A program made the position numbers and the translations under genes. Under the pieces are notes generated by a model, which made no database searches, was not told where the DNA came from, and worked only from the letters and a program-made list of their open reading frames with translations. From Chlamydiia bacterium (GTDB taxonomy: Bacteria; Chlamydiota; Chlamydiia; Chlamydiales; Rhabdochlamydiaceae): 42,982 bases of DNA. The number at the start of each line of letters is the position of its first letter. Position 1 is the first letter of the stretch. The stretch lies in contig CAWDOQ010000013.1 in assembly GCA_963804085.1 (NCBI GenBank), forward strand, positions 1 through 42,982. The letters are read 5' to 3'. Below are positions 8,021 to 10,485 of this stretch, piece by piece.

Positions 8021-9809
8021 ATGAGATACTGGTGTCTTTTAATCCTTTTTATCTGGCTTCCGCTCTGCTCCTTTTCTGCAGATGTCCGCATTGAATGTTA
8101 CGACTGCGGCTCTGAAGATGACCCTGACATGTATGAATTATCTCGAACTTTTTATCGGACAATTAAGAAAATTGGATTGCTCGACAAACACAGAAAGTAT
8201 CATAACGGCAGATCATTTGAGATTGAGTGGAATTATGATGAACTTTTTCGAGTAATTGATGATGAATACGACAGGATCGTAGGATATTCCAGGTTCTCAC
8301 GATATTGTTATGACAGTTTTGCTGATAGTGAACCCGATATTGACGATGATGACGGCTTTTTTTTAGATACAGAGTACGATCTTGCGTACTACTCCCATTT
8401 TGTAGACGCTTGTATATACGCGTATTCTGACTTGCGGCTATTGTATGAACTCAGTCTTGCAACTCACAAAAGCTCTTTAGAGAAAATGAAAAATGAAAAA
8501 AACAGTGCCTATGAGGAAAAGCTTAAAGAAATAAATGAATTAAAAGAGAACTACCCCAAAAATGTAGCGCGGCTACAAAAAGCTGAAAAGAAAATAAATC
8601 ATCTTTATGAGGAAATTTTTGCTTGGTGCGCCGAGCACCACGATGAACCAGGTGCATATTATCAAAGAGGTCTCCAGCAATTTTATCTAGGAAAAATGGA
8701 AGATGCTGTGGACAACATGGCAAATTTTATCAAATTGGCAGAAAAGGACACCGATATCGTTCTGCCACCAACTGCTCATGTGTTTACTGGCAAAATACAG
8801 GCTGAAATGGGGCTCTATCATGATGCTATTAACACTCTGTCAAAAGTAATAGAGAATGATCCCGCTAATAAAGAAGCCTATCTAGAGCGGGCTTTCGCCT
8901 ATTTTGAGACAGGAGACTTTTCACTCTCTTTAAACGACTTCATTACATCTGGATACAAAAGAAGTTGCGAAGACACTCTGCAACATAATGTAGATTACGC
9001 AGCTGGATTAATTGCTGGAGGGCTAGTCGCAGGTTCATTGCAAGGGACAGCGCAAGCAGTAGCTGAAATGCCTTATCTCGTTTTTGATTCACTAAGAGGG
9101 CTCAGCCATGCTCTTTGGTCTGCTACTTGCAAACCCTCAAGAGATATCAAAAGAATTGATCTCAGCCTGTCAAAATTGCGTAGATTACGTTCGCGATCAC
9201 TCAACCACGGAAATAATCGCGGATCTTGCTCCCGAAATGCAAACCCTTGTTGCCAATTTCGAACAGCTCAATGACTATCAAAAAGGTGAACTTGTCGGCA
9301 CTGCACTAGGCAAATATGGAGTTGATCTCTTTGCAGGAGCAGGCATTTTAAAATGCATGAAGTCATACCGCGATCTAAAAAGAGCAAACAGCCTTCTCAC
9401 ACTACAAGCCTGCACCGCTTCTGAAGCAAACGCTGCAGCCATCATGCAAGAAGCCACAAAAAGGTGGCAACTTAGAGAAGCTGTCTGCAAAAATGCTAAT
9501 CTCAAAATTCAAGCAGACAAGCAAGGCAAGCACTTAGTCGGCCACAAAAATTATGAAGGGGATGAATTGCGTAGCATTTTGGAACATCCCGACCCTCAAA
9601 AACTAGCCAACGAATATGCAGGTTCAGGAGTAAAAACAAATGGCTCAACCCCTGGTAGCCCTGGTTATGTTGAAATAGTGAATTTTGAAGAATTCATAGG
9701 CTATAGCATTAATGAAAAAACAGGTGTTAAAACACCTACCGCCTATGGAAAGATCCATTATGCCAAAGATGGGGTACACATCGTCCCAACACATCCAAGA
9801 GGAGAATAA
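8021..9809 (+). CDS. Putative polymorphic toxin: signal peptide + TPR region + helical linker + C-terminal Ntox50-like (bacterial toxin 50) RNase domain; +1 frameshift at about 9111-9135
   Basis: RBS GAGGTG before ATG 8021; signal-like MRYWCLLILFIWLPLCSFSA; TPRs (AYYQRGLQQFYLGKMEDAV, AHVFTGKIQAEMGLYHDAINTL, AYLERAFAYFETGDFSLSL); C-terminal KQGKHLVGHKNY and GKIHYAKDGVHIVP resemble Ntox50. Confidence 0.8.
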
Positions 9810-9813
9810 TAAT

Positions 9814-10485
9814 ATGAGTGAATTTGATCTTGAGTATGCACTCATTACAATGCAAGGGGCTTTGTTGGGGATGGTAGTACCTTCACTAAGAGCAGTCTCT
9901 GTACAATTTGATCCTGAGAAGAAGCTTCTCACCTACTACTATATCTATGATTGCGCAATTGACGATGCATTATCTGATTTAGCCTCTTGCTCTGCAACAG
10001 AAGCTAGTGCGAAATTTCCTGCAAATTATGATTTTGAATATCACATTGAAGAACTAGGTCCTTCGAAACCTATCCCGTCAAGAGGTCTTTTTGCTTATTT
10101 AAGAAATGAAAAAAAATATTCGCCCATCGCAGCAAAGCCAATATCATTTTCTCTTCAAGAAACGAAACAAACAAATAAGCAAATTATAGTTGGCGACCTT
10201 CTTTTTCCCATGCAGCAAGCTTTGTTAGGAAAAGTGACTCCTTCATTGAGAGCTGTTAAGGTAAATCTTGATGATGCTACACACACACTTGAGTGCTCTT
10301 TTTTTTATGATGGAAAGATCACCGATGAGTTATATGACTTAGCAAGCCAAACCGCCATCACAGGAGCTGCTCCTTTTGCACCAAACTACACCTTAAAATT
10401 AAATGTTGAGCAGTTAGATTTTCCTAATAAAATTCAAAGAGTGGGCAGGTGGGTGTACAAAAGACGCGAAGAAAATCATGCATAA
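9814..10485 (+). CDS. Candidate immunity protein with an internally duplicated domain
   Basis: Starts 4 nt after the toxin stop with an AGGAG RBS; two copies of MQxALLGxVxPSLRAVxV...YDxxIxDxLxDLAS. Confidence 0.75.
   Translation: MSEFDLEYALITMQGALLGMVVPSLRAVSVQFDPEKKLLTYYYIYDCAIDDALSDLASCSATEASAKFPANYDFEYHIEELGPSKPIPSRGLFAYLRNEKKYSPIAAKPISFSLQETKQTNKQIIVGDLLFPMQQALLGKVTPSLRAVKVNLDDATHTLECSFFYDGKITDELYDLASQTAITGAAPFAPNYTLKLNVEQLDFPNKIQRVGRWVYKRREENHA

Follow-up and report, generated by a model that had tools for sequence, protein, structure and literature searches.

A probable polymorphic toxin-immunity operon of the Ntox50/MafI2 type with a seemingly undescribed Sec-type carrier in a Rhabdochlamydiaceae-type chlamydia

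Two toxin-immunity pairs of known structure are the closest described relatives of the locus reported here. In the pair MafB2-CT/MafI2 of Neisseria meningitidis B16B6 (8HHJ), the toxin domain is an RNase for whose toxicity His335, His402 and His409 are important, and MafI2 inhibits it in a 1:1 complex by blocking its substrate face (PMC9970974). In the pair YxiD-CTD/YxxD of Bacillus subtilis 6633 (9V8I), the toxin domain is part of a type VII toxin of the LXG class from a Gram-positive organism and is a metal-dependent tRNase with a site formed by His447, His521 and His528 together with Lys446 and Lys524 (PMC12700104). In both domains, the three His are required for toxicity or RNase activity (PMC9970974; PMC12700104). 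Both are Ntox50 domains, a family that Zhang et al. (2012; PMC3482391) predicted to be RNases of the BECR fold and recorded in chlamydiae as well, naming no immunity protein for it in the part of the text cited here. Here, we describe positions 8021-10485 of a 42,982-nt stretch of DNA, contig CAWDOQ010000013.1 (C13; hereafter the window), from a Rhabdochlamydiaceae-type chlamydia whose genome assembly comprises 2.13 Mb in 24 contigs and is 91% complete. This region is likely to represent a two-gene polymorphic toxin-immunity operon. Judged from their sequences, its toxin tip and its immunity protein are homologous to the solved pair MafB2-CT/MafI2. The first-pass annotation had considered the whole system unclassified, which holds for the carrier, as it seems to be undescribed, and not for the toxin and immunity parts, which are of a known type.

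The locus comprises three open reading frames (ORFs) on the + strand, 8021-9274 (417 aa; piece 1), 9108-9809 (233 aa; piece 2) and 9814-10485 (223 aa). The first two overlap in different frames and are treated below as a single toxin gene, which ends with the stop codon TAA at 9807-9809; the ATG of the immunity ORF at 9814 lies 4 nt past this stop and is preceded by the sequence AGGAGA at 9800-9805. The features of the two genes are as follows.

8021-9139, + strand: 5' piece of the toxin gene, encoding residues 1-373 of the 595-aa form (identical to residues 1-373 of the database protein P0238)
8021-8080, + strand: putative Sec-type signal peptide (MRYW..SFS/A) without a lipobox, by a hydropathy heuristic; most homologues have similar N-termini
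8096-8107, + strand: Cys pair (CxxC) right after the signal peptide, in the variable N-terminal module; C26 is invariant or nearly so
8291-8635, + strand: acidic stretch and long helical hairpin (stalk), from the Asp/Glu count and the model of the homologue P0002
8636-8932, + strand: three tetratricopeptide repeats (TPRs; TPR_1, E 2e-7, residues 206-304, and structural matches to TPRs)
8993-9461, + strand: helical pre-toxin domain with Gly-rich helices and a GKYG motif, cut by the frame break and conserved across all tip classes
9137-9143, + strand: probable frame break of the assembly, from the frame switch in homology, contigs that read through and the intact P0238
9141-9809, + strand: toxin gene, second piece, residues 374-595 with the stop codon, from the ORF list, homology and P0238
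9507-9788, + strand: Ntox50 RNase tip assigned by Pfam, with Lys-His at 9528-9533, His at 9756-9758, Lys at 9765-9767 and His at 9777-9779
9814-10485, + strand: immunity gene with two MafI2-like repeats found with repeat profiles, R1 (9814-10122) and R2 (10168-10482)

The tip of the toxin was assigned to Ntox50 (PF15542) over piece 2 residues 134-227 with an E-value of 2.5e-24 and 86.3 bits against a cut-off of 22.2, the match covering profile positions 1-92 of 92. This agrees with the family that had been proposed at the first pass from the motifs KQGKH (9519-9533) and KIHYAKDGVHIVP (9750-9788). Moreover, piece 2 matches the chains of MafB2 (8hhj_B, E 7.7e-8) and YxiD-CTD (9v8i_B, E 1.6e-3) in the Protein Data Bank (PDB), and both alignments bring the active-site positions into register, namely Lys-His in KQGKH, His in IHY, Lys in KDG and His in HIVP. 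The active-site residues of the window's tip are K141, H142, H217, K220 and H224, followed by IVP (piece 2 numbering), so that all three His of MafB2 as well as the His/Lys site of YxiD-CTD are represented. They likewise include the residues H, K, H, K and HxVP that the table of Zhang et al. (2012; PMC3482391) gives as conserved in Ntox50. Among 38 aligned tips, Q, K and H of KQGKH as well as H and P of HIVP are invariant (K22, H23, H105, P108). The fold was assessed with the AlphaFold2 model of P0002 (42 aligned sequences, pLDDT 84.5, pTM 0.77), a homologue that is 88% identical to piece 2, and not with the window's own protein. The tip of this model superposes on 9v8i_B with a TM-score of 0.78 (root-mean-square deviation 1.9 over 105 columns, 36% identity) and on 8hhj_B with a TM-score of 0.68, and it has the fold of the solved Ntox50 RNases. 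By analogy to YxiD-CTD, cleavage of tRNA would be the likeliest activity of the tip. In a tree of the 38 tips, that of the window belongs to a set of 25 chlamydial tips that has good support; further chlamydial tips form a second set, which lies near the non-chlamydial ones with weak support, and the direction of transfer is not readable from this tree.

The 223-aa protein encoded downstream consists of two repeats of ~100 residues, which are 40% identical to each other. A Pfam scan with a local copy that does not contain PF26541 yielded no match for this protein; the precomputed label PF26541 is carried by 81 of the 82 database relatives found with the repeat profile. MafI2 (8hhj_A) was matched by a profile built from 18 repeats (E 3.7e-9, 88 of 102 positions, 13-100) and was found by profile only, as a PDB search with the single sequence returned nothing meaningful. 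At E <= 10, this search with the immunity profile matched four PDB sequences; none of them is the immunity chain of 9V8I, which appears to be unrelated in sequence. The likeness to MafB2-CT/MafI2 thus extends from the tip with its three aligned His to the immunity protein and to the order of the two genes, toxin then immunity. MafI2, however, is a single domain of 108 residues in the solved chain, whereas the window encodes a tandem of two repeats.

The pairing of this immunity family with the Ntox50 tip was followed in 31 loci of relatives retrieved with the toxin body as the query, comprising 14 loci with an Ntox50 tip, 13 of them assessable, and 17 loci with other tips. The immunity family is located directly 3' of the tip in all 13 assessable Ntox50 loci and in none of the 17 others, which, together with the homology to MafI2, supports the proposal that the gene 4 nt downstream is the immunity gene. 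In addition, a profile of seven repeats detected the family after Ntox50 tips whose bodies are Rhs-type or of another kind, namely in Actinopolymorpha alba (L096), Parapedobacter deserti (L098) and a Pseudomonadota metagenome-assembled genome (MAG; L085), and with a weak match in a Kiloniellales MAG (L078). The loci L098 and L085 share with the window the tip and the immunity family directly downstream; their bodies are of the Rhs/YD type with a DPxG core end, whereas the window's gene has no Rhs match.

A structural model of the window's tip together with the whole tandem reached a complex score of 0.84 (median of three runs) compared to 0.01 for the best of three controls, the runs agreeing in at least 88% of the contacts at a partner pLDDT of at least 84. 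The mark for this score is reached by 116 of 157 solved complexes and by 2 of 215 mismatched pairs and is a rough one, as own alignments were used. In the model, most contacts join residues 3-76 of the immunity protein (repeat 1) to residues 94-113 of the tip, among them the middle His. The model would thereby place repeat 1 over the catalytic face of the toxin, in the same arrangement in which MafI2 blocks the substrate face of MafB2.

The tandem arrangement of the immunity protein appears to be old. In a tree of the repeats from 24 ORFs, each with two and only two repeats at E <= 1e-15, the repeats cluster according to their position, first or second, in the tandem. The position label requires 3 changes in this tree compared to a mean of 16 after shuffling, with 0 of 500 shuffles as low; as kin share labels, these figures show clustering only. 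Nine distinct ORFs of relatives (L004, L005, L009, two in L035, L049, L051, L072 and L075) harbor an in-frame remnant of an Ntox50 tip between the two repeats, which starts at positions 64-70 of the tip profile and comprises the last 45-50 tip residues, from a VDF.E.IGY motif on; Pfam confirms the remnant in L004. Such a remnant is either a recombination scar that has been conserved or a fusion with a function of its own. The linker between the two repeats of the window contains no such remnant. In one relative, L052, orphan tips and immunity genes alternate in an array. We infer that repeat 1 is the cognate inhibitor and that repeat 2 has been retained from an earlier cassette.

Two adjoining genes with a 4-nt spacer, encoding a predicted RNase and a presumably tight-binding inhibitor, might likewise form an intracellular toxin-antitoxin module that is never exported and acts in addiction or abortive infection, and Ntox-type RNases do occur in such contexts (Ntox24 row in Zhang et al. 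2012; PMC3482391). We regard this explanation as hardly conceivable for the window's locus, where the RNase follows a putative signal peptide and ~480 residues of conserved body. Moreover, no PADLOC defence model matched the locus, and the order of toxin and then immunity gene in combination with swappable tips is that of polymorphic toxins.

The reading as a toxin-immunity operon presupposes that pieces 1 and 2 form one gene, as suggested by the first-pass annotation, which had placed a +1 shift at about 9111-9135. A single gene is supported by the present data; the break, however, is located just 3' of this interval. Both ORFs match one 625-aa protein, P0002, which is the closest database relative and carries the TPRs and the Ntox50 domain in a single chain; its identity is 57% to residues 1-379 of piece 1 and 88% to residues 10-233 of piece 2. 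The homology exits frame one after nt 9139 and enters frame two at nt 9141, and beyond the break the first frame continues out of register until the stop codon at 9272-9274. The gene can be explained without the frame repair made at the first pass, since the intact 595-aa protein P0238, encoded on a contig of 14,835 nt present in Logan and in ENA, contains both pieces letter for letter in one frame; its residues 374-595 correspond to piece 2 from residue 12 on, and it belongs to the 90% cluster of piece 1. In addition, a contig of run X5, which stems from another study and is 95-99% alike, spans 8999-9214 with a one-letter length difference at 9139 and reads through. A contig of run X1, the run that best represents the window, begins at 9140, and 11 loose letters ahead of it fit the preceding window bases one letter short. 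Both contigs have a depth of only 2-3. The contigs of runs X2 and X3 cover only 9298-9595 and hence exclude the break, and X2, X3, X4, X6 and X7 account for small shares only.

Frame breaks are not confined to the toxin gene. The glgB gene at 3764-5994 on the - strand (GlgB_N/CBM48 and alpha-amylase domains) is spread over three frames; its two breaks, near 5500 and 5360, both adjoin a run of GGGG, which suggests indel errors in the assembly. Likewise, three overlapping ORFs in different frames at 23166-24760 on the + strand, two of them with leucine-rich repeat (LRR) domains, are probably a single LRR protein gene split by frame breaks. Given the intact P0238, the X5 and X1 contigs that read through, and the split glgB and LRR genes, the toxin frame break at about 9139/9140 is probably a sequence error of the assembly and not a property of the organism. 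A programmed frameshift was considered and rejected, as no intact homologue needs a shift and both P0238 and the contigs of two runs read through.

Alternatively, the gene might be decaying, with the break real in this strain, the toxin dead and the immunity gene kept against the toxins of relatives. Apart from the two overlapping ORFs, an immunity remnant downstream testifies to past decay, several loci of relatives contain split or truncated chassis genes, and on another ENA contig the toxin gene is broken elsewhere, into P0237 (282 aa) and P0239 (57 aa). The latter observation also counts the other way, as break sites that vary between assemblies, along with the split glgB and LRR genes, point to indel errors. 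Moreover, P0238 equals both pieces in one frame, the X5 and X1 contigs read through with one letter of difference at the break, though at their low depth, and no further stop or damage is found outside the break, all catalytic residues being kept. A pseudogene is therefore improbable in our view.

With the toxin gene read as one, its carrier can be described from the N-terminus on. The Sec-type signal peptide noted at the first pass is predicted here as well, with a basic start (M-R), a hydrophobic core at residues 4-16, the motif S-F-S/A and no lipobox; by the same hydropathy analysis, no other segment of the toxin is hydrophobic enough for a membrane span. The acidic region amounts to 11 Asp/Glu within residues 91-120, and the TPR families of Pfam cover piece 1 residues 206-304. 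The model of P0002 comprises in order a signal helix, a helix with a small beta domain (33-109), the long helices 113-165 and 169-236 that form a hairpin (block-mean pLDDT 86-98), six helices corresponding to three TPRs (239-338), a helical domain (351-521) and the tip (526-619). The acidic region and the three TPRs proposed earlier are thus both recovered, and the Gly/Ala-rich linker QKGELVGTALGKYGVDLFAGAG was located at 9279-9344. When P0002 and the window are compared, the N-terminal part is 57% identical and the pre-toxin domain with the tip 88%, indicating a faster evolving N-terminal module or mosaic genes.

None of the known delivery domains was detected in this carrier. Among the Pfam matches at E <= 1, neither piece showed Rhs/YD, haemagglutinin/two-partner secretion, LXG, PAAR, VgrG or MafB domains, in agreement with the first reading of the sequence. 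MafB-N (PF06255) matched neither the window's pieces at E <= 1 nor P0002 at E <= 0.01, and NCBIfam yielded nothing above its cut-offs. The pre-toxin domain has no Pfam family, also when the newer precomputed labels of P0002 are included. Folded alone (pLDDT 79), it gave a best Z-score of 4.2 and none of at least 5 among 48,161 chains, which is not proof of a new fold; a fold search with the body returned TPR and generic long-helix matches only. The description of the carrier as a distinct chassis is supported by the lack of a Pfam family and of a structural match for this domain. Atlas features of the pre-toxin region are nearest to clusters of EndoU and MafB toxins (0.84-0.93; MafB 0.84-0.87), a lead only that Pfam does not confirm. 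A literature search with subscription journals and supplements outside its scope revealed no description of this carrier family and nothing on Rhabdochlamydia in connection with polymorphic toxins.

The carrier is probably a Sec-dependent polymorphic toxin type with a lineage-specific constant domain. In comparison to MafB2, it has a body of TPRs and a helical pre-toxin domain without a MafB-N match, and its host is an intracellular chlamydia. In comparison to YxiD, it has no LXG match. A signal peptide, in the window's toxin a putative one, followed by a lineage-restricted constant region and many C-terminal toxins also characterizes MafB-N, Microscilla-N and the Amoebophilus domains APD1/APD2. 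Some of these lineage-specific domains occur in an amoeba endosymbiont; the section of Zhang et al. (2012; PMC3482391) on such domains names no chlamydial one and the same paper notes TPR repeats in toxins secreted via Sec and the type II secretion system (T2SS). The window's toxin differs from them in that no lipobox is present, the constant part is central and the N-terminal module is variable (14 clusters). Moreover, the Amoebophilus effectors (PMC3482391) are without immunity genes, whereas the window's family is accompanied by them.

The overall architecture can also be compared to that of bacteriocins, as the window's toxin would work alike. Nuclease colicins and S-type pyocins are soluble modular proteins that combine a long helical hairpin and non-catalytic modules for receptor binding and entry with a nuclease at the C-terminus, their immunity gene being the next one downstream, and one member of the present family, L013, has a tip like a colicin/pyocin DNase or of the LHH type. 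In contrast to colicins, the window's toxin has a putative signal peptide, and no lysis gene is found in the ORF list of the window. Furthermore, its body has neither a sequence nor a fold match to them (colicin E9, Z 3.3, not significant), so that it is not a member of this group.

The homologues have variable C-terminal tips and variable downstream genes, as anticipated from the first reading. In a comparison of 33 members, Ntox50-tipped proteins share an identity of 0.26-0.46 with other-tipped ones over P0002 residues 276-500 and of 0.14-0.22 from there on, and among Ntox50 members it stays at 0.38-0.67 past residue 500. Such a drop, here at ~500, is typical of the junction in polymorphic toxins. 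The 31 loci fall into 11 tail clusters, with two short or truncated tails lumped with Ntox50, and at least 11 tip classes were counted. Besides Ntox50, Pfam names only the LHH/colicin-DNase tip of L013 and, weakly, an Ntox35 tip in L015, the rest being without a match. The downstream genes vary with the tip and include the known immunity families WapI and Imm40 as well as DUF7945; by sequence, tips and downstream genes are exchanged together. The N-terminal modules vary too, forming 14 clusters among 45 proteins (9 of 54 having been dropped for short N-termini) on which the tip classes are mixed. The constant part is therefore the core of TPRs and pre-toxin domain.

Several further observations were made on the tips. 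In L072 and L075, the chassis ORF ends exactly at the junction of body and tip (..LTFEALATSKK) and the tip is encoded in a separate ORF; these breaks sit at the junction where cassettes would be swapped. The tips of L020, L021, L031 and P0005 share the motif ..RVMPGNP.SP.P.. and are followed by DUF7945-like genes, and those of L023 and L024 share a ..KHAW.. motif and are followed by repeated genes of ~190 aa. Neither class has a Pfam family, and both are candidate new toxin-immunity families.

Of 400 genomes sampled across the phylum, 169 encode the pre-toxin domain (171 positions), representing 104 of 212 genera. Per family, these were 53 of 90 genomes in f1, 35 of 69 in f5, 22 of 46 in f30, 19 of 35 in f31, 9 of 23 in f27 and 0 of 29 in f28, and among the matches listed all hits lie within the order of the window. 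In a representative library, 728 clusters contain the domain at E <= 1e-3, of which 620 remain at 1e-10 and 331 at 1e-30, and its end is a median of 104 residues away from the C-terminus. The best 150 of the 728 include 131 with a tail of at least 70 residues, namely 83 with Ntox50, 31 with a second class and 8 with a third, in nine clusters altogether; this list leans to Ntox50 because the profile does.

The exchange of tips also bears on the question of the target. As the organism belongs to the obligate intracellular chlamydiae, the RNase might act on the RNA of its eukaryotic host, an amoeba or arthropod, and thereby modulate or stop translation in the host, with the immunity protein protecting the producer before export. 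Eukaryote-type domains are encoded nearby, an F-box-like one at 7003-7707 and the LRR pieces at 23166-24760, and Zhang et al. (2012; PMC3482391) treat several chlamydial toxin-domain proteins as host-directed effectors. Furthermore, YxiD-CTD cleaves tRNAs of unrelated species, so that an Ntox50 domain need not be specific for bacteria (PMC12700104). Such an effector function appears unlikely to us, as tips and immunity genes are swapped together and relatives contain extra immunity gene arrays and orphan tips. On antibacterial toxins of the Rhs type in free-living phyla, Ntox50 is paired with this immunity family as well, and adjacent immunity genes in endosymbionts have been read as a sign of inter-bacterial conflict (Zhang et al. 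2012; PMC3482391). In addition, protection of the producer alone leaves the spare immunity repeats in conserved order unexplained.

For the toxin-immunity operon that we consider likely, the following sequence of events can be proposed. The toxin would be exported by Sec and then probably by a type II system encoded in the genome, or be displayed on the surface; a secretin adjoins GspF on contig C17 of the same genome. It would then reach a neighbouring bacterium, most likely another chlamydia in a shared host cell or inclusion, and might cleave tRNA or other RNA there, halting translation unless the matching immunity protein is present. The stalk, the TPRs and the pre-toxin domain may serve surface display, receptor binding and/or entry, as in colicin-type bacteriocins. 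As an extension of this proposal we tentatively consider a chlamydia-specific family of bacteriocin-like toxins exported via Sec and T2SS, with exchangeable N-terminal targeting or anchoring modules and tips and with the pre-toxin domain as a new envelope-crossing module; this is possible, though rather doubtful. If true, environmental chlamydiae would routinely wage kin-discriminating warfare within shared host cells, and two-repeat immunity proteins, some of them with a tip remnant, would be a record of successive cassette replacements.

A number of points weigh against the reading as an exported antibacterial toxin with its immunity protein. The signal peptide is predicted from hydropathy and a cleavage motif, and we know of no substrate rule for T2SS. 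A role of the pre-toxin domain in translocation is a guess, because the domain has no structural relative (best Z 4.2). The toxin gene is split in this assembly, and if the break were real, this copy would make no secreted RNase. The middle His of the active site, although present in the window, varies among the 38 tips. The counts of loci derive from related genomes and are non-independent, and a separate set of loci that was retrieved with Ntox50 patterns (10-row alignment) over-represents the Ntox50 tip. As 8HHJ is solved, the complex score may reflect likeness to it and not binding by this copy. An immunity gene would be needed by any producer of an RNase and is no proof of a bacterial target, and an obligate intracellular bacterium encounters few competitors. 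Finally, the source genome, at 91% completeness, contains one chassis gene and one immunity locus, with no orphan toxin cassette and only an immunity remnant.

This remnant and a palindromic repeat mark the 3' edge of the locus.

10491-10583, + strand: remnant comprising only the C-terminal part of a third immunity repeat and lying in a different frame (E 1.5e-7 over profile positions 57-100; second search E 0.003)
10598-10718, no strand assigned: palindromic dispersed repeat, the first hairpin of which is terminator-like

The palindrome is near-perfect over ~120 nt, and the RNA fold of 10590-10790 has an energy of -87 kcal/mol (z -8.4). It is dispersed, its 54 matches, both strands counted, corresponding to ~25-30 places spread over many contigs of this genome (71-89% identity), and looks like a miniature inverted-repeat transposable element or a repetitive extragenic palindrome. 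An Rfam scan of 7000-11000 yielded nothing but sub-threshold hairpin-type matches at 10598-10776. On the 5' side, an F-box-like domain protein, a eukaryote-type effector domain with an E-value of 7.6e-5 just below the Pfam cut-off, is encoded at 7003-7707 on the - strand and adjoins the toxin locus. The G+C content is 0.39-0.44 across 6001-11000 compared to 0.47-0.505 in most flanking 1-kb windows, and the F-box-like gene shares this lower block with the toxin and immunity genes. Between them, upstream of the toxin gene, we observed an inverted repeat of 17 nt (7811-7827 and 7890-7906, 94% complementary) as well as three to four direct copies of a unit containing GTCCGTT (7868-7930), both of which may be regulatory.

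Zhang et al. (2012; PMC3482391) considered polymorphic toxin-immunity systems to be relatively rare among endosymbionts. A toxin family with swappable tips and immunity genes suggests that intracellular chlamydiae fight each other, and a single carrier family is present in 169 of the 400 sampled genomes and 104 of the 212 genera, often in several copies and with many tips outside Pfam. Moreover, Ntox50, for which the passages of Zhang et al. (2012; PMC3482391) cited here list no immunity protein, is now linked to a MafI2-type immunity family across at least four phyla. The finding makes testable the direct competition of obligate intracellular bacteria within a host cell, the passage of a protein toxin across the unusual chlamydial envelope and the role of about ten unnamed tip classes.

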